This document shows, in pieces, positions 3,699 to 48,565 of a stretch of 64,000 nucleotides of DNA; the stretch's first letter is position 1, and each line of letters begins with the position of its first letter. Source of the DNA: an uncultured Christensenella sp. (GTDB lineage: Bacteria > Bacillota > Clostridia > Christensenellales > CAG-917); the NCBI GenBank assembly GCA_910578325.1, contig CAJTQT010000002.1:235074-299073 (forward strand), written 5' to 3'. The notes under the pieces were generated by a model. The model was not told the origin of the DNA. It saw only the letters and a list, made by a program, of their open reading frames with translations, and did not search any database. The translations under genes were made by a program, and so were the position numbers.

Positions 3699-4385
3699 TT
3701 ATTTTTGCGTGCGGCGATATTCTGACATAGGTCTTTCGCCGAACAAAAGCCGTCCGAGCCGGAGCATATTCGCACCGTGCGCCAACGCGATCTTATAATC
3801 GCCCGACATACCCGCCGACAAATACTCTATATCTGAATTTCGGGTTTTTATATTCCTTACTCTCTCAAACAGACTTTCCAACCTCGCGTATTCCCCATGC
3901 AACTCTTCTGCATCCGGCAAATTCGGCATTACGGACATAATGCCCTTGACTTCTATATGCGGATAGTTTTCAAGACTATCGATAAAATCGCATACCTTTT
4001 CGGGACTAACACCGCCTTTCGTAATTTCCGCGCCCATATTGACTTCAACAAGGCACTGCTGAACTTTATTGCGTTTTGCGGCTTGTTTTTCTATTTCGCA
4101 AGCGAGTTCGTGTCTGTCCAGCGAATGTATGAGCGAGACTTTATCAATAATGTATTTCACCTTATTCGTCTGTAACCGTCCGATAAAATGCCAGTCGTAA
4201 CGGGAATCGTATTTGGATGTCAGTTCCTGAACACGGTTCTCGCCCAGGACAAATTCGGGCGCGTACACCATAAACTCGTCAACAGTCTGTTTGGTCTGAG
4301 TTTTACAGGCGGCAACGAGTACGACTTTGCGTCCGCACTCCGAAACGTCTTTCCTTACAGATTCCAAACCGTCAAACAATATCAT
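3699..4385 (-). CDS. yggS: YggS/PLPBP family pyridoxal-phosphate homeostasis protein
   Basis: 'WHFIGRLQTNKVKYI' signature, 228 aa, located next to sepF. Confidence 0.9.
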   Translation of the reverse strand: MILFDGLESVRKDVSECGRKVVLVAACKTQTKQTVDEFMVYAPEFVLGENRVQELTSKYDSRYDWHFIGRLQTNKVKYIIDKVSLIHSLDRHELACEIEKQAAKRNKVQQCLVEVNMGAEITKGGVSPEKVCDFIDSLENYPHIEVKGIMSVMPNLPDAEELHGEYARLESLFERVRNIKTRNSDIEYLSAGMSGDYKIALAHGANMLRLGRLLFGERPMSEYRRTQK

Positions 4386-4406
4386 ACTTCCGCCTACCGT
4401 CCGCGA

Positions 4407-6092
4407 TTATTTTATAACGTAATCGCCTGATAACGTATTGAATACAAGTCTGCGAGGCACGCCGTCCTCAACGTAACAAATTCTTATCTTATCCTGTCCG
4501 ACGTACTCCGCGGAAGTTACCTTGCCCTCGAAAGGAGCGTAACTCTCGGTGAGTATCGCCAGTTGTCTGTCGTCGTATTCCGCAACGTTATCGCTTACAA
4601 ACAGCACCGAACCGAACATATTATTGACCTTTGCAAGCAGTTTTTTCTGCGTATCGCTGTATTTAGCGGTTTTATAACCTCCGTTGCGAAGGAAGAAAAC
4701 GTCCGGATCGTTCGCCATAATTCTGCCGTTGAGATGACGGCGGAATATAGCGTTGTTCATAGCGTTGCGGGTTGAGATAACTTCCTGATTTGTCAGTCCT
4801 ACATAAAATTTGTCCTTGAAACTCGTTTCCGCGTCGCAACCTATGCGGCAGGCGTCAACAACCCCGAATGCGGGACCGAGAGGAACTCCGCATCCGAGAA
4901 TGATTTTATCTTTACAGCATTCGCGCAAAAAGTCCATAGCCTCGCACATTATCCTGCCTCGGGATTTCCCGTTTCTGGGATAGATAGCCTCGCAGTACAG
5001 GAAGTCGAGTTTTACCATATCGAATCCCCATTCGTCGAAAATTCTGTCAAACAGTTCTCTTATATACTGACGGACCTCTTCGTTTTCAAAATCGAGCGAG
5101 TAAAAACCGCCCCAGGCAATGCCTCCGATGACCAGTTTACCCTTATCGTCCCTGAGAAGCCAGTCGGGATGCTTTTTGACGATTTCCGCGCCGAACTGCG
5201 CAGAAAACGGGGCGCACCAAAGACCTGCTTTAAGCCCTTGCGCGTGTATCTTCTCCACAATAGGCAGCAATCCAGACGGGAATTTTTCGGAATCGATTTC
5301 CCAATCTCCGATTTTGGTTTCATATCCGTCGTCTATCTGAAATATATTTGCGCAATCGCCCGCTCTTTTCAAACCTTCGAGGTCGCGCAAAATAATCTCT
5401 TCGTTTATATTTTGATAATAATTATACCACGAAGTATATCCTGCAAAATGCTTTACTCTTCCCGTATGTTTACGCGGATAGGCTTCGAAATATACGTCGA
5501 ACACTTCTTCGTAACCGCCGTGAGCGTACATTATATCGAACAACTCATATTCGCCTTCGGCAACCGTTCCCTCGACGTCCTTTGCCGCCACAAGCAGATT
5601 TTCCGCCATATCGGCGTAAAAAACCGTATATCCCGTACGCTCGTTCAACGAGCCGAGCAACTCGACCTTATCGCCGTTTCGAAGATATGTATACGTAAAA
5701 CTGTGATACAGATTTTTGCCGTACTGGGTAAAATGATAATCTCCGCACGCGCCTGCAAACTTTTTTGCGACAGGCAGTTTGCAAATGGGATTCAAACCGC
5801 TCTGAACGTCACCTCGCTTATACTCCCTCGAAGTAGTCCAGGACTGGAATCCGTTTGCAAAAAACCATTCGTTCGTCTCAAAATAACGGTCGTATATAAG
5901 TTCCGCAACTTCGAGGCGCACTTTTTTGACAGAGTTGAGCACTACGCGAAGTCTGTCGCCTTCGCACTCGGCTTTTATAGATACGACACCGTCGTCATAT
6001 CCCTTTTCAATCTCCGTACAGTCTATCGACCGAGTACAGGGCTTTGCGTCCGCCGAATACGTAAGTCTGAGCGTAAAGTCCTTTAAATTCAT
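4407..6092 (-). CDS. Glycoside hydrolase, GH36/melibiase-like alpha-galactosidase
   Basis: 'FQIDDGYETKIGDW' and 'FDMVKLDFLY' (KxD nucleophile-type motif). No signal peptide is visible. Confidence 0.6.
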   Translation of the reverse strand: MNLKDFTLRLTYSADAKPCTRSIDCTEIEKGYDDGVVSIKAECEGDRLRVVLNSVKKVRLEVAELIYDRYFETNEWFFANGFQSWTTSREYKRGDVQSGLNPICKLPVAKKFAGACGDYHFTQYGKNLYHSFTYTYLRNGDKVELLGSLNERTGYTVFYADMAENLLVAAKDVEGTVAEGEYELFDIMYAHGGYEEVFDVYFEAYPRKHTGRVKHFAGYTSWYNYYQNINEEIILRDLEGLKRAGDCANIFQIDDGYETKIGDWEIDSEKFPSGLLPIVEKIHAQGLKAGLWCAPFSAQFGAEIVKKHPDWLLRDDKGKLVIGGIAWGGFYSLDFENEEVRQYIRELFDRIFDEWGFDMVKLDFLYCEAIYPRNGKSRGRIMCEAMDFLRECCKDKIILGCGVPLGPAFGVVDACRIGCDAETSFKDKFYVGLTNQEVISTRNAMNNAIFRRHLNGRIMANDPDVFFLRNGGYKTAKYSDTQKKLLAKVNNMFGSVLFVSDNVAEYDDRQLAILTESYAPFEGKVTSAEYVGQDKIRICYVEDGVPRRLVFNTLSGDYVIK

Positions 6093-11773: not shown

Positions 11774-13378
11774 TCATTTCTTTTCATTATAAATATCGGG
11801 CAAATCATTTAATATCAGCAAAATATCCCCAACGTGAAGACGGTTTGAAAAATCATCTTCCGCGTCGGAAAGGCTGTTGTAAATATGTATTTCCCCGCCG
11901 TAACCGCCGTCTACAAGCCCTCTTCTTATGGGATCCGTACGTTTTAAACCGACCAGAAGCACAAGGTCCGCCACCTCGCTCATAAGCGTGCCGAGTTTAT
12001 AGTTCTCTTCGCTTTCGCGTTCGCCAAGTTCCACAAGACCGGGCGTTAATATGACGCGCCTGCCCTCGAACAGTCCGAGAGTTTCCAGCGCGGTGCGCGC
12101 GCCGTCGGGATTTGAATTGAAACTGTCGTCGATAATTTTAATTCCGTTGCCGTGAACAAGTTGCATTCTGTGCGGAACCGGTTCCAACTTCTCTATCGCG
12201 TCGAGGATAAAGGGTACTTCAACCCCCAGTTTATATGCCATAGTCGCTGCAAGCAGAATATCCTCTATGTTGGGATATCCTATCAGAGGCGTACGCACGT
12301 AATGACTTTCTCCGTCTAAAATTATGTCGAAATCGCTTCCGTTTTCGGTTGTGCGTATCTGCTCCGCTCTGAAATCGCATTTTTCGTCTATGCCCGAATA
12401 AACTATAGTAGGCTTCTTTTTAAGATTATTAATACTCTCTTCCGCATCCTTTCTTACCGTAGAATTGACTACGCAGAATCCTTCCTCTCCGACTCTGAGT
12501 ATTCTGCACTTTTCACGCGTAATGTTTTCCTGCGTTCTGAAAGTTTCCAGATGCTGAGAGTTTATACCCGTTAAAATAGTGTAGTCGGGTTTAACTATTC
12601 GCATAAGCGTGCGGATATCGCCCACCCTCCGAGCACCGAACTCCGCTATGAAAACATCGTGTGTTCCGTCAAGTCCGTTTACGGTTTTCGATATACCCAT
12701 AGGAGTGTTGTAACTCGCGGGCGTGACAAGCACGTTGTATTTTTCAGAAAGTATCGCCGCAAGAAAATTCTTTACGGACGTTTTACCGAAACTGCCGGTT
12801 ATCGCTATGCGTATCAGATTCGGATTTGCGTCCAGCAATCTTACGGTGCGCCTTTCATAACGCTTATTGTTTATTCTTTCAAACACGTTTATAACCGCGC
12901 CGAACGTCATAAATATCAGCGGATACACTATCGGGAATCCGAACAGAACAAGATAGCGCATATACGGTTGCGTAATATACGCGTTGCCGACTGCAAACGC
13001 AAGTATAATTACGGTTGTAGATAACACCGTCATCAAAAATAGGAATCTGACCGCGCGTTTTGTATATCTCAGCGGTTTTTTACGCGTAGGCAAATCTTCC
13101 ATAAAATACATAGCGAATTCCGCTATGAAAAAGAACAACACCGTAAGAAAACCCCAAAAGGCGCGCGTCTGCAAGAAATAGAATATACACCATACGCTTA
13201 TAAACAGCGCGACGGCGCACAAATCTATGAGATAAACGAATTTCAACCGCCTGTTCTTAAAAATCTCCGAAATTCTGTAATTATCCTGCTGTATGGCGTA
13301 AAGATATGGGCGCGTCATAAAAAACGCGTCTATAAACACCAAAAGCACGTAGAACCAGTCGCCTCTAACCAACGTCAT
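11774..13378 (-). CDS. murF: MurF-like Mur ligase (UDP-MurNAc-tripeptide--D-Ala-D-Ala ligase) with an N-terminal polytopic membrane domain
   Basis: 'ITGSFGKTSVKNFL' P-loop and 'IDDSFNSNPDGA' C-domain motif. The first roughly 170 aa are hydrophobic helices rather than the usual MurF N-domain. Confidence 0.75.
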   Translation of the reverse strand: MTLVRGDWFYVLLVFIDAFFMTRPYLYAIQQDNYRISEIFKNRRLKFVYLIDLCAVALFISVWCIFYFLQTRAFWGFLTVLFFFIAEFAMYFMEDLPTRKKPLRYTKRAVRFLFLMTVLSTTVIILAFAVGNAYITQPYMRYLVLFGFPIVYPLIFMTFGAVINVFERINNKRYERRTVRLLDANPNLIRIAITGSFGKTSVKNFLAAILSEKYNVLVTPASYNTPMGISKTVNGLDGTHDVFIAEFGARRVGDIRTLMRIVKPDYTILTGINSQHLETFRTQENITREKCRILRVGEEGFCVVNSTVRKDAEESINNLKKKPTIVYSGIDEKCDFRAEQIRTTENGSDFDIILDGESHYVRTPLIGYPNIEDILLAATMAYKLGVEVPFILDAIEKLEPVPHRMQLVHGNGIKIIDDSFNSNPDGARTALETLGLFEGRRVILTPGLVELGERESEENYKLGTLMSEVADLVLLVGLKRTDPIRRGLVDGGYGGEIHIYNSLSDAEDDFSNRLHVGDILLILNDLPDIYNEKK

Positions 13379-38377: not shown

Positions 38378-39903
38378 CAGTTGTATTTTCTATCCAGTCC
38401 TCTGTACTGTATCGCTTCGGCAATATGCGCGGGCAAAATGTCCTCGCAGCCTTCGATATCCGCAATCGTGCGTGCGACTTTGAGTATTCTCGTCGTTCCC
38501 CTCGCACTGAGATTCAGTTTTTCGAACGCTTTTGACAAAAGCCGTTCGCAATTCTGGTCTATTTTGCAATATTTGCCGAGTTCCCGCGAACCCATTTCCG
38601 CATTGGTAAAGATTCCGTCGTCTTTGAACCTCTCTCTTTGCACTGCGCGAACCCTGTTTATTCTCTCCTTAATCTGCGCTGAACTCTCCGCTTTCTGCAT
38701 ACCCCGCAACTCGTCGTATGAAATATTATCAACTTCGATCTGCAAATCTATTCTGTCCATAAGAGGTCCCGAAAGTTTTGAGACATAATTATGGATTTGA
38801 GTCGGAGTACAGCGGCAAATCTGGTTCTTTGACCCGAAATTTCCGCACGGACAGGGATTCATACTGGCAATCAGCATAAAGTTTGCCGGGTATTCCACAG
38901 TGCTCTGCACCCTCGACACCGTGACTTTTCTGTCTTCGAGCGGCTGTCTCAGCGTTTCGAGCGCATGACGCGAATACTCAGGCATTTCGTCGAGGAACAG
39001 CACTCCGTGGTTTGCAAGGCTCACCTCTCCCGGCTTCGCCTTTGCTCCGCCGCCTATAAGCGCGGGAACTGTCGTCGTATGATGCGGAGTTCTGAAAGGG
39101 CGTGTTGTCACTATTCCAACCCCCGCGTCCAAAATCCCCGCAACACTGTGCACTTTCGTCACCTCGATAGCCTCTTCGAACGTCATCTCCGGCATTATCG
39201 TTGGGACGCATTTGGCAAGCATCGTCTTACCTGCACCGGGAGGACCTATCATAAGCGCATTATGACCTCCCGCAACCGCTATTTCCATAGCGCGTTTGGC
39301 TACGGTCTGTCCCTTTACGTCTGCAAAATCCACCCCGTAACCGTGCCTTTCGCAACTCGCCACGTAGTCGGAAGTCTCAACGGCGGCATACTCCGCTCCG
39401 TTTAAAAACTCCACCGCTTCTGCAAGCCCGCTCAGCGCATAAACCTCTATTCCGTCTATATAACTCGCTTCTCTGGCATTTCCTTCCGGCAGGATGAATT
39501 TTCTACACCCGCCCTGCATAGCGGAAATAAGAATAGGCATTATGCCGTTCACCTGCCTGAGTTTGCCGTCAAGCGACAGTTCGCCTATCATAACGAAGTC
39601 TTTATACGCCCTGTTCTCTATTTGCCCCGTCGCGGCGAGAATACCCGTCGCAATTGCCAAATCGAACATAGGACCTTCTTTTTTCGTATCCGCAGGCGCA
39701 AGATTGACCGTAATACGCTTTGCGGGATACTGATATCCGCTGTTTTTTATTGCGGAACGCACGCGTTCCTTGCTTTCTTTTGTAGCCGTTGACGCCAGTC
39801 CGACCAACTCATACCCCGGCAAACCGCTGTTTATATCGACTTCTACGTCGACAGAGTATCCGTTCAATCCGTCCAAAGCGTAACTTTTTATTTTCGCAAG
39901 CAT
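38377..39903 (-). CDS. comM: YifB/ComM family Mg-chelatase-like AAA+ ATPase
   Basis: Lon-protease-like N-domain plus 'IGPPGAGKTMLAK'. The likely start is MLAKIKSY at 39903. Confidence 0.9.
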   Translation of the reverse strand: MLAKIKSYALDGLNGYSVDVEVDINSGLPGYELVGLASTATKESKERVRSAIKNSGYQYPAKRITVNLAPADTKKEGPMFDLAIATGILAATGQIENRAYKDFVMIGELSLDGKLRQVNGIMPILISAMQGGCRKFILPEGNAREASYIDGIEVYALSGLAEAVEFLNGAEYAAVETSDYVASCERHGYGVDFADVKGQTVAKRAMEIAVAGGHNALMIGPPGAGKTMLAKCVPTIMPEMTFEEAIEVTKVHSVAGILDAGVGIVTTRPFRTPHHTTTVPALIGGGAKAKPGEVSLANHGVLFLDEMPEYSRHALETLRQPLEDRKVTVSRVQSTVEYPANFMLIASMNPCPCGNFGSKNQICRCTPTQIHNYVSKLSGPLMDRIDLQIEVDNISYDELRGMQKAESSAQIKERINRVRAVQRERFKDDGIFTNAEMGSRELGKYCKIDQNCERLLSKAFEKLNLSARGTTRILKVARTIADIEGCEDILPAHIAEAIQYRGLDRKYN

Positions 39904-40037
39904 ATTATCTTCCGCCTTTATTAAAATAAAGTTAATAAATTTTAGCACAATTTCCAAAAAAAGGCAATCATATAAAAGACTTGCTTTTTTCAGTTTTGAA
40001 ACATAAATTCAATTTTAATCGTTTAGATATCCTAAAA

Positions 40038-40062
40038 TTAAAAAACAGCCTGATCGGCTGTA
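40038..40062 (-). terminator. Rho-independent terminator closing the four-gene McrB-like/peptidase unit
   Basis: On the minus strand: ACAGCC-gatc-aGGCTGT followed by TTTTTTAATTTT, 37 nt after the stop at 40099. Confidence 0.6.
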
Positions 40063-40098
40063 ATATTAAATTTATTGTTTTAACAATATACGATAAAA

Positions 40099-40836
40099 TT
40101 ATTCAGTTTTGCCGTCGCTGTCCCGGCGCGCGTCGTCTTCTTCCGCCCGCTCATCCGAAGGTTTATCCGATTTTAGATAGTCTTCAAGCAATTTTCGTTT
40201 TTGCTCCTCGCTCATATCGTCAAGCGCAACTTTTTTCTCTGCGTTTGCGGCGTTTTCCTTTTCAAGCCTGTCGCGCACGTATCCCACTATCAGCAATATT
40301 CCGACAATACACAGCGGCAAAGCGATAAGCAAAACGTACCCATACCAGTGCGATAGAAATCTGCGAAGACCGCCTATAAATACAGATTTATGCAGATAAA
40401 CCGCTTTTATGTTGGACGGAGACAGCCGCCATTCGTCAATACCAACCGAGGGATTGTCTCCTTTCGTTTTAAAATAAAGCACGCTTCCGTCTTCCGCCCT
40501 TACGACTTCCACAATCCTATGCGTTATGTTACGACCTTTCAACTGTCCGCTCGGTGCGATAAACGTAATTATATCGCCCGCTTTCAGCGATTCGGCATCC
40601 TCAACTTTCTTTGAGACGATAACTTCGCCCTGTTCTATCGTTCCCGACATACTGTCAGTCACGACGTCGAATATATAGTATCCGAATATGCTCGAATCGC
40701 CACCGCTCTTACGCTGCCACATCATCAGCGAGACGATTACAACCAAAAACACAAACACCACCGCCACTATGACGGTGGATATGATATTGTAAATCTTTTT
40801 AGCCTTTGACTGCTCTTTCTTTTCTCGTTTAGACAT
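40099..40836 (-). CDS. Archaeal-type (S26B, SipW-like) signal peptidase I paralog 'D' with a C-terminal TM and a charged cytoplasmic tail
   Basis: N-terminal TM anchor, 'VVTDSMSGTI' (Ser motif), 'ITHRIVEV' (His motif), 'TKGDNPSVGIDEW', a C-terminal TM, and the tail '..MSEEQKRKLLEDYL..'. Confidence 0.7.
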   Translation of the reverse strand: MSKREKKEQSKAKKIYNIISTVIVAVVFVFLVVIVSLMMWQRKSGGDSSIFGYYIFDVVTDSMSGTIEQGEVIVSKKVEDAESLKAGDIITFIAPSGQLKGRNITHRIVEVVRAEDGSVLYFKTKGDNPSVGIDEWRLSPSNIKAVYLHKSVFIGGLRRFLSHWYGYVLLIALPLCIVGILLIVGYVRDRLEKENAANAEKKVALDDMSEEQKRKLLEDYLKSDKPSDERAEEDDARRDSDGKTE

Positions 40837-40869
40837 TTGATTTTACGGCTTCTTTATACGCTTAATAAT

Positions 40870-43239
40870 TCAGTCGCCGTTATGCTCTCCGTCTTCTTTC
40901 TCTTCGGATTTGTGGTGTTCGTCGTCTGACTTATTCTCGGCTTTACGACCTCTTGCCAGCATTCCGAACGGATCGTTTATGTTAAATCCGTCCTTAAACC
41001 TTATTCCCCCGACTGCAACTTTCTTTTCGTCTACGGGTTCTATACTCTTTTTTCTCTTGTTGCGTTTCGGCGCGGGCTGTTCTGGGACAGATTCGCCCTG
41101 CGTGACAGCGCTTTCCTCTTCCGCTCCGATTTCCGATTGCGGATTTTCGTCAGTCTCCGTTTCTTTGTTCTCCGACGGTTTATCTTCTTCGGGAATCTCT
41201 GTCTGTACAGGCTGGACGTCGGCTTCTTCCATTTCAGCGTCGCTTTCAGCAACGTCTTCCGAATCAGTCGCGGTCTCATCAACCGCAGGCTCTGCCTCAC
41301 TGTCGGTTTCGGTTATATCAGAAATCTCGTCAACGTCGGTCTTTTCCTGTTCCGCGTCCGATTCGGAGTTTTCATTCGCATAAGTATTTTCCTCGGACGG
41401 TTCTGTCTCAATGCTCTCCGCCTCGACGTCACAGGTGGCGGTTTCGTCAATTTCGGCGATAATTTCGTTTTGAGAATCGCATTCTTCCGCCGATTCCGAC
41501 TCGGTTATATCGCTATCCGATTCTTTTGCTTTATTCGCCTCTTCGAGCATACGTCTGCGCTCAGCCAGAAGTTCTTCTTCTCTCTTCGCCTCGGCAAGTT
41601 TTGCCATCTGATAACCGAAAGGATCAATGCCGTAATGCACAGTCGCGTCGTGTTGCAACAGATCGGCGTTCTTTTCCAAATCCTCGCGGTGTTTTGCAAA
41701 CGCGGCGGCGCGCTTTTCCATTTCCGCAATTCGGTGACGGATTCTCTCCTGCCGCACACGCTCGTCGATTTCTTCCTGCTTGATTCTGCGGTAAGAAATG
41801 AGACATCTGTCAACCGCGTCCTTTACTTTTGCGATATCCTCCTGTTTGAGTTTATCGTCGTCGGGACGTTTATAAAGTTTGCGTACTTCGTAAAGATGCC
41901 GGTCAAATTTTTCGACGTCCGCGTCGAGGTCGACTTCCTCCTGATCTGCCTTAGGCGCAATTTCTTTGAGCCTTTCGACTTCGACGGGTTTTTCGACTTC
42001 GACCTCCTGAATGATTTCTTTTTCTTTATCTTTTTCGCGCTCTTCAACCTCAGGTTGACGTTCTTGATTCTGCGGAGTTTCAGCGTCGGATTCCTGCGTT
42101 TTGTCTTCGGGTTGACGTTCCTCATCAAGCGACGTCTCCGCTTCTTCGTTTTCTTGCGGCGTAACATCTTCTATTCTGTCTTCTTCGTCTTTCAACTCGT
42201 CGTCCAGTTTCTGAGCATATTCGTCCCGATTGAGTTCGTCTTTCTGGAAATCCATATCGCCAACGCGCAGGAAATCTGAAAATTCTTTATCTTCCATATC
42301 CATATCGGTCTCGTGTTGCTCGTACATACTCTCAAAAATCATCGTATTGAGAGTGACCATATTTTTCAGATTGTCCACGTTATCCGTTTCGATATCGTAG
42401 TTTTCAACCTCGTCGGATGTGGAAAAACCGCCCGTAGCGTTGTAAGTTTCGATAAACTGCCATAGTGTAAGCGCTTTTTTAAAATTCGGCTCTTTCAGGA
42501 TGACGTTCGTACGCATAATAGGCGGACGGACGGGCGCGGAATTGCGCATAGATTTTGCAAAAGACGACGACAAAAAGTCTGTAATAATGCGGTCTATTTT
42601 GGCAACGCGCTCGATTTTGGTCAGAGTGTCGGGATCTAAACGCATAACCTCGTCAAAACTGAGTTGCGCAAAATATTCGGTTCTGAAAGTAACCTTTTTA
42701 CTCGGCAGATTAAAACGCGATTCAACGTCAAGTTCAAGCACGTCCTGCGTTGCGGACGCCTTTTTGATCTTATCGTATCGCATCGTGACAAAATCTTTGA
42801 GTTTAAGAAGCAAAGTATAGATAAAACGGTTTTCGTAAATTTCAAACGACTCTTCTTTTGTGATATTGAGTATTTTGCTGGGAGTAACCATTCCGTCCTT
42901 ATCGACTTTGGATATCATATTCGTATGCTGCGCGAGAAACTTGACGGATTCCGTCGAAATACTGCGCGCAAGAGACACGTCCACAATATCCTCTTCCTGT
43001 ACGATAAATTTTCGAGGGTTACGGACAATCGTATCGAGATTCGGCAGAATTTCTTCTATCGTATCGATCCAGTCAATAGAAATATCCTGTATAAGACGTT
43101 TTTTCGCCAACTTGAAATTCGACGAGCCTTTATCTACGCGTTTTTTAAACTGCTCGTAGAACTCCTCGTTTTTCAGAACGGATACGATTTTGTGCGCATA
43201 CTGCCTGTATACGTCTCTGGTAATCTGATTTTCAGCCAT
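40870..43239 (-). CDS. McrC/DUF2357-N-like protein lacking a recognisable nuclease, with a roughly 450-aa acidic, coiled-coil, low-complexity C-terminal region
   Basis: Residues 1 to about 330 contain 'FEIYENRFIYTLLLKLKDF' and '..ILKEPNFKKALTLWQFI', which resemble the helical pre-nuclease part of DUF2357/McrC partners of McrB-type NTPases. It lies immediately downstream of a McrB-family gene. I could not find a PD-(D/E)xK pattern. This is motif-level recognition only. Confidence 0.45.
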   Translation of the reverse strand: MAENQITRDVYRQYAHKIVSVLKNEEFYEQFKKRVDKGSSNFKLAKKRLIQDISIDWIDTIEEILPNLDTIVRNPRKFIVQEEDIVDVSLARSISTESVKFLAQHTNMISKVDKDGMVTPSKILNITKEESFEIYENRFIYTLLLKLKDFVTMRYDKIKKASATQDVLELDVESRFNLPSKKVTFRTEYFAQLSFDEVMRLDPDTLTKIERVAKIDRIITDFLSSSFAKSMRNSAPVRPPIMRTNVILKEPNFKKALTLWQFIETYNATGGFSTSDEVENYDIETDNVDNLKNMVTLNTMIFESMYEQHETDMDMEDKEFSDFLRVGDMDFQKDELNRDEYAQKLDDELKDEEDRIEDVTPQENEEAETSLDEERQPEDKTQESDAETPQNQERQPEVEEREKDKEKEIIQEVEVEKPVEVERLKEIAPKADQEEVDLDADVEKFDRHLYEVRKLYKRPDDDKLKQEDIAKVKDAVDRCLISYRRIKQEEIDERVRQERIRHRIAEMEKRAAAFAKHREDLEKNADLLQHDATVHYGIDPFGYQMAKLAEAKREEELLAERRRMLEEANKAKESDSDITESESAEECDSQNEIIAEIDETATCDVEAESIETEPSEENTYANENSESDAEQEKTDVDEISDITETDSEAEPAVDETATDSEDVAESDAEMEEADVQPVQTEIPEEDKPSENKETETDENPQSEIGAEEESAVTQGESVPEQPAPKRNKRKKSIEPVDEKKVAVGGIRFKDGFNINDPFGMLARGRKAENKSDDEHHKSEEKEDGEHNGD

Positions 43240-43443
43240 AATACTTTTTTTATATTTGCCGTTTGCTCACCCAGATATCTCTTGCTGAAATCGGGTTTTC
43301 TATTCCGCGCCCGCACGACGCATCGGTCTGAACCGACAAGCCGTACGTTTGCGTTTTAGTTTATAACAGCGCAAATCATTTACTGCCTGCGTGTAACCGC
43401 CGACAACTGCACTCCCAAAAGTGCCTCAACGTCAATTATGCCG

Positions 43444-44958
43444 TTAGAACAGTTTCTTCAATCTGTTGATATATTCCTTGCTCTCCTGCATATTCTCTTC
43501 GCCGAAAAGTTCACTCAGATAAAGCACGAGCCCGTCGATTTCATCACGGATATACGAAAGGTTGAGCGATTCGAACTTTCTGAAAATCTTGTTGCAGAGC
43601 ACGTAATCCAGACCGTCGAGTTCGCTTCCGCCGCAACCGACGTAAGACGGAACAAATTCTTTCAACTGCTTTACGATACGGTTTCCGAACGCGAGTCGGA
43701 AATGCTCGATTACGTAATCGTCAAGTTGATTTATCTTATCAAGATTATCCTGCGAGACCTGATATATTTCCTGGGACTTTTTAAACTCCGCTTCAAGATG
43801 CTTATAACTTATAAACAAATTATCTTCCCACGGCGCTTCGAAAGCAATACCTTTACTGTTAATGTTGATAGGCATAGCACGGTCGTAAACCTTATCAGAA
43901 ATCGCAAACGTAGAGTCGTCGTTGTTAGCCGTTCCGATAAACCACATATTCTGCGGCAGTTGGAATCTACCCTTCTCGATATGCTTAGGGTCGTTCGGCC
44001 AGCCGGACGGCACAAGGTCGACAATCCATTCGTCGCGCGACGGCATTTCGAGTATGGACAACATTTCCGCAAAGTAGTATTCCACACGCGCGATGTTCAT
44101 TTCGTCGAGAACGGTGAGGTAAATCTGGTCGTTCCACGTTGCCTCGTACATCTTCTTTAAAACTTCGGTTTCGTTGAAACGTTTCGTAAATTCGTTAAAA
44201 TAACCGAAAAGTTCGGTACGGTCACGCCAAGACGGCTGTACGGAAGCGATTGTCGCGGGATTGTTTAGGAATATGCCCATAGCGTGCGGCAACGACGTCT
44301 TACCTGTACCTGATATACCCTGCAATATAAGCAGTCTCGACGTCGAAAGGCTTGCCACAAACAGCCTTATTATACGCGGCTGATAAAAAAGTTTCATACG
44401 CGAACAGGCAAAGTTGCGGAACTTATCGCAAAACTGCGGCAAAGTAATTTCGTCGTCATAGACAGGCGGAACATAGTTCTCGTAAATCTTATCGATTTCG
44501 GTAAGTTTGTAAAAACGGGATTCTCCCGACGGACTCTTTTCCTTGCCTTCTTCGCCTTCCGAGCCTTCCTCGCCTTCATAGTTGCCGATATCGCTGACTC
44601 GCATACTCAGTATACGGTCTTTCTCCGCGCTCATCTTTATAATCTGTTTTTTGAGATTCGCGCATTCTTCAACCAAATCCTGCGGCAGAACTTTCGCCTT
44701 GCCCAGTCTTGCAAGTTTGCGCAATCCCATAATGGCAAGTACGATTATAGCAACCATAACCGCTACTATCAGAATAATGAAGATGATGGCGACGGCCCAT
44801 TCGCCCGCGCCGAAATATTCGGTGTAATTTTTGAAAGCGTCAGAATAACCCTCGTTGTAAAAAATATGTAAGAAGCCCCAGAAAATACTCCCGATTCCCT
44901 TATCGTAAAACGCTCCGAGAAACGCTTTAAGAAATTCAAATACAAGATTGATATTCAT
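43444..44958 (-). CDS. McrB-family (COG1401/AAA_5-like) NTPase with an N-terminal transmembrane anchor
   Basis: Walker A 'ILQGISGTGKTSL', 'VQPSWRDRTELFGYFN', Walker B and family signature 'LTVLDEMNIARVEYYFAEMLSILE', and 'FIGTANNDDSTFAISDKVYDRA' (an NxxD-type motif, as in McrB MNTADRS). The N-terminus has the hydrophobic helix 'WAVAIIFIILIVAVMVAIIVLAIMGL'. Confidence 0.65.
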   Translation of the reverse strand: MNINLVFEFLKAFLGAFYDKGIGSIFWGFLHIFYNEGYSDAFKNYTEYFGAGEWAVAIIFIILIVAVMVAIIVLAIMGLRKLARLGKAKVLPQDLVEECANLKKQIIKMSAEKDRILSMRVSDIGNYEGEEGSEGEEGKEKSPSGESRFYKLTEIDKIYENYVPPVYDDEITLPQFCDKFRNFACSRMKLFYQPRIIRLFVASLSTSRLLILQGISGTGKTSLPHAMGIFLNNPATIASVQPSWRDRTELFGYFNEFTKRFNETEVLKKMYEATWNDQIYLTVLDEMNIARVEYYFAEMLSILEMPSRDEWIVDLVPSGWPNDPKHIEKGRFQLPQNMWFIGTANNDDSTFAISDKVYDRAMPININSKGIAFEAPWEDNLFISYKHLEAEFKKSQEIYQVSQDNLDKINQLDDYVIEHFRLAFGNRIVKQLKEFVPSYVGCGGSELDGLDYVLCNKIFRKFESLNLSYIRDEIDGLVLYLSELFGEENMQESKEYINRLKKLF

Positions 44959-45080
44959 AACAATTATTTATTTTATACTCTTCTAAGTTATGCTTGCGCG
45001 TACGCAAACGCAAGTGCGCTTATATGCGTACGCAAGCGGACGGAATATCCGTCAAACCCCCTATTACAGTCCCGAACCGA

Positions 45081-46037
45081 TTATTCCTCGGTTTCATCGG
45101 GAGCGGAAGACTCCTCTTCGGGCTCAGCCGTTTCGGAAATTTCTTCCTTATCTGATCCCGCGGGTATGAGCGTTTGCTCTGCCTGCGCCTCGGATTCCTG
45201 CTTTTCCCTGCTCAACGATGCGAGATATTCCTCCGCAAGACGACGCTTTTCTTCGTCGCTCAGACTGTCCACCGTAACGACCTGCTCTCCTGCAACCTTC
45301 TTGTTGTTTTCGAGTTTAGCAATGACCAAAGTGCGCACCAGAATAAATGCGTAAATTACAAACAAAAGAATCAGCGGAAGCACTACAATGCAGAAGAAAC
45401 GAGTTTTACCTTCCACCGGATCTTGCATAAAGTTTCCGAGTGCGCCCGCGCCTTTGAGCATTTTACCGCTTGTAAAGATAAGTTCTCCGTTTTCACCCTC
45501 GGATACATCTCCCCATACGGCGACGATATCCTCCGGCGAAACTTTATGTTTATCCCAAGACGAATGGTCTGCGTCCTCAGCAACCGTATCCTGCCATCTG
45601 CCTTCCTGATTATCGCCGCGGGTGCGTATAGCCGTAACCGTGCCGGCAGCATTCTTTTCAATACCTACTACTCTGTGCGAGTTGAAGTCCGGATAATTAG
45701 AACCTGCCTGATAACGCAGAAATTTAAACGTGATAACCTGTCCGACTTTAAGGTCCGCTCCGTCTCCGCTGTACGCTGTCGAAATGATAACGTCGTTCTT
45801 TTTGAACGTCGGAGCCATCGAGTCCGAAGCAACCGAGAAATAGCAGTTATCGCCGACGCGTGTAATGTTGTCGGGATTAGCCGAACGTATGATAGTGAAA
45901 ATGGCGACAACCAGTGCAAAAACTATCAAAACGATACAAATAACGTTCACAACCCAATTGAGAATGGTCCTTACCTTCTGTTGAGAGGGCGTGAGTTCTT
46001 TCTTCTCTTTCTGAGAAGACTTTGCGAAAATATTCAT
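45081..46037 (-). CDS. Archaeal-type (S26B, SipW-like) signal peptidase I paralog 'A' with a C-terminal TM and an acidic cytoplasmic tail
   Basis: N-terminal TM, 'VASDSMAPTF', 'SHRVVGIE', 'TRGDNQEG', a C-terminal TM 'FFCIVVLPLILLFVIYAFILV', and the tail '..LSDEEKRRLAEEYL..'. A strong SD (AAGGAG) precedes the ATG. Confidence 0.7.
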   Translation of the reverse strand: MNIFAKSSQKEKKELTPSQQKVRTILNWVVNVICIVLIVFALVVAIFTIIRSANPDNITRVGDNCYFSVASDSMAPTFKKNDVIISTAYSGDGADLKVGQVITFKFLRYQAGSNYPDFNSHRVVGIEKNAAGTVTAIRTRGDNQEGRWQDTVAEDADHSSWDKHKVSPEDIVAVWGDVSEGENGELIFTSGKMLKGAGALGNFMQDPVEGKTRFFCIVVLPLILLFVIYAFILVRTLVIAKLENNKKVAGEQVVTVDSLSDEEKRRLAEEYLASLSREKQESEAQAEQTLIPAGSDKEEISETAEPEEESSAPDETEE

Positions 46038-46227
46038 AAATTTTCTCCTTAGATGCCTTGCCGCGTTCTTTCCCGAGACTTATTGCCGTAAACAGTGCGA
46101 CGCCGCACCGCCGAGATAAAACCCAACCGCTATTGACATCATCGGGCCATACTTATTGCCATTTAAAGCGCTTTGCGCCCTTCACCCGAATGACTTTGCT
46201 GTACCTGCGGACAAGCCGCATATATAA

Positions 46228-46256
46228 ATTATATATGAATATAAAATTAATGTCAA
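46228..46256 (-). promoter_or_regulatory. Consensus sigmaA-type promoter for the four-gene unit
   Basis: On the minus strand: TTGACA (46256-46251), a 17-nt spacer, then TATAAT (46233-46228). Both hexamers match the consensus perfectly. The promoter sits in an AT-rich tract about 190 nt upstream of the first ATG. Confidence 0.65.
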
Positions 46257-46451
46257 TATACGAAATTGCCGTTAATAAATTAAAATTAGCAAAATTGCAA
46301 TAAAATATATGAGCAACGCAAATGCAGTATGTTTGTGAATCGTCCATATACAATAAAATTAAAACTTTGTTATCTGGAAGCAATGCGCAAGACATAGGTT
46401 TTGTAACTGTCTACTTATGAAATATTAAAATTACGTCTATTTAGTTTTTTG

Positions 46452-46487
46452 TAAGAAAAAGGCACTTTTACATTAAAAGTGCCTTTA
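46452..46487 (-). terminator. Rho-independent terminator of the EF-G paralog gene
   Basis: On the minus strand: AAAGGCACTTTTA-atg-TAAAAGTGCCTTT followed by TTCTT. Confidence 0.7.
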
Positions 46488-46516
46488 ATGATTGTATCAA
46501 TACAGTAAGCGCCGGA

Positions 46517-48565
46517 TTACGCTTCGCGGGATTTTGCCTCCGCGATAATCTTATCGTTGTTCATCGCCGGGACCTCTTCGTAACGCGCGTGGTGCATTTC
46601 GAATTTACCTCTACCCTGCGTCATAGACCGCAAATCCGTGGCATAACGGAACATTTCGGCTTGCGGAACTTCGGCAGTTATAATCTGCTTGCCGTTTGCC
46701 ATATCCGTGCCGAGAATTCTTCCGCGACGCTTGTTCATATCGCCGAGGATATCTCCGAGATATTCGTCAGGAACAGTGATCTTCGCTTCCATAATAGGTT
46801 CGAGGAAGCAGGGAGCCGCCGCCGCGATACCGTCGGCATAAGAGAGTTTCGCCGCCGTGACGAAAGCGATTTCCTTACTGTCGACAGGGTGATACTTTCC
46901 GTCGTAAAGCGTTGCTTTCAGATTGACCATAGGATAACCCGCGAGCACGCCGTGCTTGATAGCCTCCCTCAAACCCTTTTCAACCGCGGGAATGAACTGA
47001 CGAGGCACCGCGCCGCCGACAACAGCGTCTACAAATTCGAATTCGCCGTCCGCCGCGCCCGCTTCGTACTTGATAAACACGTCGCCGTACTGACCTGCTC
47101 CGCCCGATTGCTTTTTATGCTTACCCTCTGCCTGCGCAGTCTTTTTTATGGTCTCGCGATACGCCACTCTCGGCTCCTGCCATGCGATATCTATGCCGAG
47201 TTTCGCCTTTACGCGTTTGCACATAATATCGAGTTGAGCCTCTCCGAGTCCGCTGATGAGCACGTCGCCGGTTTCAACGTTCTTTTCTACCTTGAAAGTT
47301 GCGTCCTCTTCCTGCATCTTGATAAGTCCCTGAATCGCTTTTTCCTCGTCTTTCGCCGCTTTTACAGCATAGGAAATGACGGGAGACGGGAATTCTATCT
47401 TTTCAAACACGAGTTTGTTGCCCGAAGCGGCAAGAGTATCGTTTGTATTTGTGTACACGAGTTTCGCAACCGCGCCGATATCGCCCGCGGAAAGACCGTC
47501 GACCGTCTCCTGCTTCTTGCCTTTAAGAACGTAAATCGCGCCGACTTTTTCGGGTTTATCCTGCGAATTATTATATATATTATCTCCGCTGGACAGTTTG
47601 CCCTGTATAACTTTGAATATAAGCAATTTTCCTACGTACGGGTCTACCACGGATTTAATGACCTGCGCGCTGAACGGAGCCGCAGCGTCTACGCCGATTT
47701 CCTTAACCTCTCCGCCGACAGTCGCTTTGATTTTATGAACGCGGCCGGGATGCGGCATAAGGTCGACGATCTTATCCATAAGCCTTGCCACTCCCTTTGA
47801 ATTGAGCGCGTTACCTGCCATAAGCGGGATAAACACTTCGTCGGCGATAGCGACGTGCAAACCTTTCTGGATTTCCTCGTCGGTAAATTTTTCGCCTTCG
47901 AAGAATTTCATCATAAGTTCCTCGTCTGTTTCGGCGATCATCTCCATAAGTTTGGCAGTATACTCTTCAACGTCCGCTTTCACCACGGCGGGAGTTTCTA
48001 TAACCTTGCCCGCAAGGTCGAACGCTTTGCCGGAAAGAACGTCCACGGATCCGATCATCGCTCCGTTTTCCATAATCGGAAGTTCGACGGGAACAACGTT
48101 TTTATACTTTGCCATAATCGCTTTGACAGTTCCGTTGAAATCGGAATTGTCTTTATCCACCGCGTTGACGAATATAAACGACGGAATTTTTTTCTCTCCG
48201 CACAAATCGAGAGCCTTTTCCGTACCGACCGTAACCGAGCCGCTTGCGGAAGTGACGACTACCGCGCTGTCTGCGGCTTGCAACGCCGCCTGCATTTCGC
48301 CCTCGAAATCGAAAAAGCCGGGAACGTCGAGTATATTTATCTTCGTATCGCGATAGACCGCGTAACCCAGAGCAAGAGAAATAGAAATCTTACGTTTTAT
48401 TTCTTCGTCATCATAGTCCATAGTAGACGAACCGTCGTCCACCTTACCGAGACGGCTTATTGTTTTTGCTTCGAACATAATCGCTTCGGCAAGCGAAGTC
48501 TTTCCTTCGCCGGAGTGTCCGATAAGCGCAACGTTGCGTATAGATTGAGTGTCAAAAATTTTCAT
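46517..48565 (-). CDS. Elongation factor G family GTPase (EF-G2-like paralog, not in an str operon context)
   Basis: 'ALIGHSGEGKTSLAEAI' and 'DVPGFFDFEGE', with five-domain EF-G length (682 aa). No rpsL/rpsG/tuf neighbours are present. Confidence 0.8.
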   Translation of the reverse strand: MKIFDTQSIRNVALIGHSGEGKTSLAEAIMFEAKTISRLGKVDDGSSTMDYDDEEIKRKISISLALGYAVYRDTKINILDVPGFFDFEGEMQAALQAADSAVVVTSASGSVTVGTEKALDLCGEKKIPSFIFVNAVDKDNSDFNGTVKAIMAKYKNVVPVELPIMENGAMIGSVDVLSGKAFDLAGKVIETPAVVKADVEEYTAKLMEMIAETDEELMMKFFEGEKFTDEEIQKGLHVAIADEVFIPLMAGNALNSKGVARLMDKIVDLMPHPGRVHKIKATVGGEVKEIGVDAAAPFSAQVIKSVVDPYVGKLLIFKVIQGKLSSGDNIYNNSQDKPEKVGAIYVLKGKKQETVDGLSAGDIGAVAKLVYTNTNDTLAASGNKLVFEKIEFPSPVISYAVKAAKDEEKAIQGLIKMQEEDATFKVEKNVETGDVLISGLGEAQLDIMCKRVKAKLGIDIAWQEPRVAYRETIKKTAQAEGKHKKQSGGAGQYGDVFIKYEAGAADGEFEFVDAVVGGAVPRQFIPAVEKGLREAIKHGVLAGYPMVNLKATLYDGKYHPVDSKEIAFVTAAKLSYADGIAAAAPCFLEPIMEAKITVPDEYLGDILGDMNKRRGRILGTDMANGKQIITAEVPQAEMFRYATDLRSMTQGRGKFEMHHARYEEVPAMNNDKIIAEAKSREA

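Follow-up and report, generated by a model that had tools for sequence, protein, structure and literature searches.

The stretch of DNA analysed here (the window) comprises 64,000 nucleotides from an uncultured Christensenella sp. and carries, on its minus strand, the genes of two SipW-like signal peptidases on either side of genes for a membrane-anchored McrB-like GTPase and a McrC-like protein. Both peptidases continue past their second transmembrane (TM) helix into a tail that holds one copy of a short helical motif, and this motif, its distribution across related genomes, and its possible connection to the GTPase pair are the subject of this report. From high to low coordinates the features of the cluster are:

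46228..46256, minus strand: promoter-like site, TTGACA-17-TATAAT (12/12 consensus matches; consensus match only)
46038..46256, minus strand: leader of ~190 nucleotides from the promoter to the SipB-like start codon (promoter included in the coordinates)
45081..46037, minus strand: SipB-like S26B signal peptidase, 318 residues (open reading frame (ORF) call, family models, and full-length alignment)
45222..45263, minus strand: tail motif LSDEEKRRLAEEYL, SipB-like residues 259-272
43444..44958, minus strand: membrane-anchored McrB-like AAA+ GTPase, 504 residues (NCBIfam McrB model, PDB profile, and ortholog alignment)
40870..43239, minus strand: McrC-like protein, 789 residues (DUF2357 in orthologs and conservation profile)
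40099..40836, minus strand: SipA-like S26B signal peptidase, 245 residues (ORF call and family models)
40174..40215, minus strand: tail motif MSEEQKRKLLEDYL, SipA-like residues 208-221
40045..40061, minus strand: terminator-like stem-loop with a T-run (consensus scan; consensus match only)

The promoter-like site, a perfect sigma-70-type consensus, lies ~190 nucleotides 5′ of the SipB-like start codon, and the stem-loop with its T-run lies 38 nucleotides 3′ of the stop codon of the SipA-like gene, the last of the cluster. With four co-directional genes, a promoter consensus, and a terminator-like loop, the cluster resembles a single transcription unit, and the SipB-like, McrB-like, McrC-like, and SipA-like genes look like one apparent operon.

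The two peptidases were compared with each other and with curated family models. They align end to end, tails included, with 28% identity (E=1e-20). On TIGR02228 (sigpep_I_arch, the archaeal/endoplasmic reticulum (ER)-type model, with a curated cutoff of 51.85 bits), the SipA-like protein scored 68.6 bits and the SipB-like protein 45.1 bits; the latter value is just under the cutoff, and the insertion in the SipB-like protein is the probable cause. The scores on the equivalog model of Bacillus subtilis SipW (NF046067, cutoff 190 bits) were 100.3 and 37.9 bits, respectively, both far under the cutoff, and on this basis we class the window peptidases as SipW-like in type and not as SipW orthologs. 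The catalytic residues correspond to Ser62, His106, and Asp127 in the SipA-like protein and to Ser73, His121, and Asp142 in the SipB-like protein. Among 118 related peptidases, Ser62 was conserved in 118, His106 in 117, Asp127 (the Asp of GDN) in 104, and Asp134 in 97, and Ser73, His121, and Asp142 were invariant among the SipB-like orthologs. Both window enzymes are predicted to be catalytically intact and of the S26B type, using Ser/His/Asp and not a Ser-Lys dyad. A LepB-type (S26A) peptidase was not found by regular expression within the 64-kb window.

By both hydropathy and AlphaFold2, each peptidase has two membrane helices, one N-terminal and the other C-terminal to the catalytic domain. 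In the SipA-like protein, TM1 (~18-40) is followed by the catalytic domain, TM2 (~164-186), and the tail; in the SipB-like protein the order is the same, with TM1 at ~29-52, a catalytic domain with an insertion, and TM2 at ~214-236. The models (m9e327a30a434 for the SipA-like and m8997941c31b1 for the SipB-like protein) had predicted local distance difference test (pLDDT) values of 79.8 and 77, respectively. The N termini are rich in Lys and Arg (7 and 6 positive residues), and the natural reading for both peptidases is N terminus in, catalytic domain out, and tail in, a topology based on the positive-inside rule and on the way in which enzymes of this class operate. An earlier note made from the window sequence had described two SipW-type paralogs with the catalytic Ser and His retained and with TM helices at both ends, and the full-length alignment, the near-invariance of these residues among the 118 relatives, and the concurrence of hydropathy with AlphaFold2 bear out that description.

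The elements shared by the two tails are MSEEQKRKLLEDYL in the SipA-like protein and LSDEEKRRLAEEYL in the SipB-like protein, each of 14 residues, with 8/14 identities and 5 conservative changes. The earlier note had called them nearly identical, which is too strong for 8/14 identities, but the element is real and is conserved in orthologs. When both tails were shuffled with their composition preserved, at least 8/14 identities were reached in 68 of 5000 trials (p ~0.014), so that the window pair by itself is modestly significant. No further occurrence of the motif was found in a six-frame scan of the window. In the AlphaFold2 model of the SipA-like protein the motif belongs to a helix (residues 210-224) that has a linker of lower confidence before it and a disordered acidic end after it; in that of the SipB-like protein it belongs to a helix at residues 261-286, after a low-confidence linker (251-259). 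The pLDDT of the motif helix was moderate (~75-77) in both models, and the confidence of the flanking linkers was low. In each tail, TM2 leads into a flexible linker, which is followed by a single amphipathic helix and then by a disordered acidic end.

Across genomes the observation gains much in strength over what the window alone shows. A genome search anchored on the McrB-like protein provided 80 comparative loci from Christensenellales, Oscillospiraceae, Acutalibacteraceae, and Ruminococcus, in all of which a SipW-like gene adjoins the McrB-like/McrC-like pair, often together with a second, and in most at a distance of ≤450 nucleotides. The consensus from 75 tail instances is xx[LI][SE]EExK[KR][KR]AIEEYLA[KS]Q, with an amphipathic spacing of the hydrophobic positions, and describes an amphipathic helix of 18-20 residues with the core [LI]-S-E-E-x-K-[KR]-[KR]-A-I-E-E-Y-L-A. 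Among the best 120 SipA-like orthologs (53-68% identity), nearly all keep [LMI][ST][DE]E[EDQ]K..LL, with Leu216 invariant and Glu211, Lys213, and Leu217 at least 90% conserved, while the remaining tail is unalignable. Among SipB-like orthologs (~50-60% overall identity), the block VDSLSDEEKRRLA[EQ]EYLASL is almost invariant and conservation ends directly after it; Glu263, Lys264, Leu267, and Ala273 of the SipB-like protein were invariant in 40 orthologs.

A hidden Markov model (HMM) of the motif scored 22.0 bits on the SipA-like and 23.3 bits on the SipB-like protein, and 106/120 SipB-like orthologs reached at least 6 bits. When run on 2,664 ORFs (83 loci and the window), the model gave 109 matches at ≥5 bits, all to SipW-like proteins. 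Among 20,383 segments from a six-frame translation, 107 matches scored ≥8 bits, 105 of them in called SipW-like ORFs and 2 in SipW-like genes truncated at contig ends; the number in proteins not SipW-like was zero for both the 2,664 ORFs and the 20,383 segments. Of the McrB-like-anchored loci, 55 had 1.2 kb or more of sequence on each side, and every one of these (55/55) carried at least one motif-bearing peptidase. The motif separated two size classes of peptidase, being found in 89/99 long proteins (>210 residues) versus 1/17 short, canonical-size SipW paralogs of the same loci, and, in an exhaustive set of 150 cluster representatives at 50% identity, made up of sequences outside the HMM training, in 73/120 long versus 2/30 short proteins. 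In 30 of 38 complete loci there was just one motif-bearing peptidase, with one copy of the motif; the clade of the window has two paralogs with one motif each. By this distribution the tail helix is classed as a family-specific short linear motif. Loss of the motif from orthologous clusters, or its presence on unrelated membrane proteins, had been named beforehand as evidence that would count against the shared element. It is instead kept in the SipA-like and SipB-like orthologs and in all 55 loci, and within the window and the 83 loci it is confined to SipW-like proteins.

Two further observations concern the peptidases of related loci. Some lineages have 2-3 tandem copies of the motif in one tail, e.g. 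…AIIQEYLRKQQEEEFKKQQIIEEYLAKQK… (L056:6023-6943 and 3984-4862; L075:6036-6944; L081:6059-6940; L050:8184-8942; L078:4679-5467), which suggests multivalent binding of a kind that would fit an oligomeric partner. In Oscillospiraceae loci, short SipW paralogs of 180-200 residues, with short tails and no motif, close the rows of secreted-protein genes (among others L024:14085-14648; L032:14398-14940; L045:14338-14880). The occurrence of a motif-less short SipW and a long-tailed peptidase in one locus indicates that two S26B classes can coexist per locus. Compared with the SipA-like protein of the window, the short paralogs scored 101.6 versus 100.3 bits on the SipW model and 98 versus 68.6 bits on the generic archaeal/ER-type model. 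No description of the tail motif or of the split between long and short peptidases was found in the searchable literature, and both are, as far as we found, undescribed details.

The McrB-like protein matched the NCBIfam McrB model (E=7e-7) and, by PDB profile, the AAA+ domain of Escherichia coli McrB (E=1.4e-7). It has a hydrophobic N terminus, a TM helix at ~55-80, a strongly conserved juxtamembrane helix at ~88-120, and then the AAA+ core, with Walker A (GISGTGKT, 214-221), Walker B (LDEMN, 284-288), and NNDD (345-348) motifs; the last of these, in the context G-T-A-N-N-D-D, was aligned by HMMER to E. coli NTAD (NxxD), and N-x-D also fits. No TM helix or signal peptide was seen in the McrC-like protein. 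Across 68 sequences, its conservation is concentrated in an N-terminal domain (~40-300, DUF2357-type) and a helical block (~441-520), the rest being variable, acidic, and of low complexity; beyond residue 300 there was no conserved globular block apart from that at 441-520. DUF2357, the McrC N-terminal domain, scored above the Pfam cutoff in 6 of 10 McrC-like orthologs. The window protein had no Pfam match itself and aligned with the DUF2357-positive orthologs over residues 40-300. A PD-(D/E)xK nuclease domain gave no family match in the 10 orthologs. Taken together, the McrB AAA+ homology, the membrane anchor, the DUF2357 domain, and the nuclease search identify the system as apparently McrBC-derived, membrane-anchored, and nuclease-less. 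Lys and Arg residues follow the TM helix of the McrB-like protein and precede its AAA+ domain. With the Lys/Arg-rich N termini of the peptidases, this charge distribution and the lack of TM helices in the McrC-like protein would place the peptidase tails, the NTPase domain of the McrB-like protein, and the acidic McrC-like protein together in the cytoplasm, in keeping with the earlier proposal that they face the same side of the membrane.

The McrB-like protein is the most conserved of its neighbourhood. Ortholog identity was ~90% for the McrB-like protein, 85% for TopA, ~84% for ComM, ~63% for DprA, and 50-60% for the peptidases; conservation exceeding that of topoisomerase I suggests that the protein is important to the cell. 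The protein database contains more than 8,000 homologs of the McrB-like protein, and at least 572 were confirmed among species-representative genomes. Downstream of the cluster lie comM, dprA, topA, trmFO, and hslVU, and upstream an EF-G-like gene; synteny with comM-dprA-topA-trmFO-hslVU is fixed.

A system of this composition has been named CoCoPALM by Bell et al. (eLife 2024, PMC11090510), in three sentences that defer its analysis to a later publication, and no such follow-up paper was found in the searchable literature. As described there, a McrB-like GTPase is fused to an N-terminal TM and coiled-coil (FtsB-like) segment, the McrC homolog has a DUF2357 N-terminal domain and a coiled-coil extension, genes of the signal peptidase family are adjacent, and the clade is placed among the "NxD" GTPases (PMC11090510). 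The window McrB-like protein likewise has a TM helix (~55-80) and a conserved helix (88-120) before its McrB-homologous AAA+ core, and the McrC-like protein is DUF2357-type by ortholog alignment and has long helical and low-complexity extensions. From its gene content and domain layout we assign the window locus to the CoCoPALM type. The CoCoPALM paper is silent on the peptidase tail motif, on the long/short peptidase split, and on the secreted proteins considered next (PMC11090510).

Candidate substrates were found in the related loci, 65 of 80 of which encode proteins with an …ATYAWF-type signal peptide in 1-6 neighbouring genes per locus (for example L024:10468-14067; L016:3932-5083; L019:1583-2548 and 12176-13042). 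These proteins are 200-660 residues long and have a Lys-rich N terminus followed by a hydrophobic segment that ends in a conserved …[ST]AT[FY]AWF. They also share a C-terminal IWxEGxDxxCxNxxAG block. In Oscillospiraceae, a row of four such genes comes after the McrC-like gene, with a short SipW gene next. The SipW-dependent signal of TasA and camelysin is GGTWA followed by AFND, of the GGTxAxF type, and the …ATYAWF signal resembles it. On the model of SipW-cognate signals (TIGR04088) the …ATYAWF proteins scored ~12 bits versus a cutoff of 19, they had no family match in Pfam, NCBIfam, or PDB profile searches, and hhalign against an approximate TasA sequence gave a probability of 0.2%. The proteins were considered as TasA/camelysin (Peptidase_M73) homologs and rejected as such, there being no family match and the resemblance being confined to the signal peptide. 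By context, they are likely to be substrates or fibre subunits.

On these results, a coupling of the peptidases to the GTPase pair is a reasonable interpretation. Docking of the tails onto the GTPase complex plausibly fits the strict co-occurrence and the shared compartment, and we give an even chance to the proposal that the tail helix docks the peptidases onto the McrB/McrC-like GTPase assembly. In such a mechanism the helix would act as a docking element that tethers the peptidase, from under the membrane, to the cytoplasmic assembly. At a similar depth beneath the membrane lies a candidate contact, the juxtamembrane helix that is conserved in the McrB-like protein; setting this helix beside the motif variants gave no interpretable pairing pattern. 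Tethering would place the peptidase active site above the motor, the complex might process or help to assemble secreted proteins with TasA-like signal peptides, and their cleavage or assembly could be coupled spatially or energetically to the motor. A fuller version, in which a McrB-type GTPase ring positions or gates the outward-facing peptidases via the tail helix, and so forms a sortase-independent machine, driven by nucleoside triphosphates, that processes and polymerises fibre proteins of the TasA-signal type in Clostridia, is in our estimate doubtful. Were it true, the motor of a restriction enzyme would have been turned into a previously uncharacterised engine of envelope assembly, close to housekeeping in character.

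Several points weigh against coupling through the tail. The spacing from TM2 to the motif varies from ~8 to 45 residues, and the motif HMM found no helix similar to the tail motif in either the McrB-like or the McrC-like protein. The association of motif and module was counted from the McrB-like side only. The motif HMM was trained on the same loci, and what counts as evidence is the lack of matches in other proteins together with the matches in independent sets (the 120 SipB-like orthologs and the 150 representatives). No …ATYAWF gene was found in the 64-kb window by regular expression or tblastn, so that in this genome such genes lie elsewhere or are absent. Finally, the sole SipW tail studied experimentally is that of B. 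subtilis, and its target, according to the account in PMC8767453, is the expression of matrix genes rather than a motor.

The explanation that best survives beside docking is that the tail helices are oligomerisation elements, forming coiled-coil-like SipA/SipB heterodimers, or homodimers where a single peptidase is present, with the GTPase not contacted through them. The amphipathic motif with its heptad-like hydrophobic pattern would suit this role, as would the paired paralogs of the window clade, with one motif each, and the tandem copies within one tail of other clades. The single-copy, single-peptidase arrangement of 30/38 complete loci would, however, allow homodimers only, the motif-less short SipW paralogs of the same loci would be left unexplained, and a helix of 18 residues is short for a stable coiled coil. 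We consider this explanation unlikely.

Somewhat less probable again, and in our view quite unlikely, is a regulatory or signalling tail that contacts a regulator of matrix or fibre genes independently of both the peptidase activity and the McrBC-like pair. The precedent is B. subtilis SipW: on solid surfaces, the last 20 residues of its cytoplasmic C terminus turn on biofilm matrix genes without any need for peptidase function (Terra et al. 2012, in the accounts of PMC8767453 and PMC13082335). The window peptidases resemble that enzyme in the S26B Ser/His/Asp residues, in the N- and C-terminal TM helices, and in the cytoplasmic C-terminal tail, which in B. subtilis SipW has a function apart from peptidase activity. 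The description of SipW in PMC8767453 links the enzyme to secreted fibre proteins, to which the window type may likewise be linked through the …ATYAWF candidates. The window peptidases differ from SipW in that their tails are far longer (~60-80 residues) with a distinct conserved helix and that their genes adjoin a GTPase pair and not tapA/tasA. It also speaks against a regulatory tail that the canonical-size SipW paralogs of related loci are without the motif (1/17 carry it), that the motif tracks the McrB-like module in 55/55 loci, and that the module has no conserved regulator gene.

A McrBC-type anti-phage defence system, with the peptidases as effectors or sensors and an incidental tail similarity, is very improbable despite the McrB and McrC homology and a partial match of the McrB-like protein to the PADLOC candidate-defence model PDC-M26A (E=1e-36, residues 188-310). 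The AAA+ GTPase core is homologous to that of E. coli McrBC and the McrC N-terminal domain is of the same family, but the McrB-like N terminus is a hydrophobic membrane anchor in place of the domain that binds DNA or modified bases, no PD-(D/E)xK nuclease was found in the McrC-like protein, and the module sits in conserved housekeeping synteny. Such fixed synteny and ~90% McrB-like identity are unlike patchy, fast-evolving defence islands, and together with the nuclease search they argue against a role in restriction or defence. The partial PADLOC match was judged to reflect common McrB ancestry and does not outweigh this evidence. We give practically no credence to a chance match between two charged low-complexity tails, since the comparative data exclude it: the shuffles reproduced the 8/14 identities of the window pair in 68/5000 trials, but hundreds of orthologs retain the motif in a tail whose flanking parts cannot be aligned, and the motif has no matches outside the SipW-like family.

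For docking onto the GTPase assembly, the motif itself offers a way forward. Being short, confined to one family, and clear in its limits, the tail helix would make an experimental handle on communication between motor and peptidase and on what the system builds. Loci of the CoCoPALM type are abundant in gut Clostridia, yet they are known from that three-sentence mention alone.

Structural relatives of the peptidases provide additional context. The best solved relatives of the SipA-like protein were human SEC11C and SEC11A, catalytic subunits of the eukaryotic signal peptidase complex and the closest solved structures to it (profile E=1.4e-5; Foldseek E=2e-4, probability 1.00, TM-score 0.6 on the target). 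The best fold matches of the SipB-like protein were all type I signal peptidases, matched weakly (E=0.017, probability 0.98). In SEC11 there is one TM helix, at the N terminus, and neither a C-terminal TM helix nor a tail motif; its partners are SPCS1-3. The SipA/LepA protein of Streptococcus pyogenes is needed for pilus polymerisation; it is described as lacking the catalytic residues and as serving sortase-dependent pili as a chaperone. This protein has the signal-peptidase fold (PDB 4n31), was third in the fold search with the SipA-like protein, and offers a precedent in fibre assembly, although the window peptidases differ from it in keeping Ser/His/Asp.

In a search for a natural fusion of peptidase and GTPase, the one long McrB-like match, P0194 (646 residues), was rejected as an assembly artefact with an internal duplication of ~140 residues. 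An Rfam scan of positions 39000-47000 at E values up to 1 gave no family, leader included, and the leader is therefore not a known riboswitch.

Other conserved segments of the cluster were noted. In the McrC-like protein, residues 441-520 (window 41680-41919, minus strand) form a moderately conserved basic helical block inside an acidic region, and this block may serve in interactions. The C-terminal TM helix contains a proline that is kept in 117/118 related peptidases and corresponds to residue 174 of the SipA-like protein (~40315-40317) and Pro221 of the SipB-like protein. At the N termini, orthologs keep KKELTPxQQKVRTILNW within residues 1-28 of the SipB-like protein (45954-46037, minus strand), with Glu14, Leu26, Asn27, and Trp28 invariant, and KxKKIYN within residues 1-17 of the SipA-like protein (40786-40836, minus strand). 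These conserved cytoplasmic juxtamembrane segments possibly form a second cytoplasmic contact surface.

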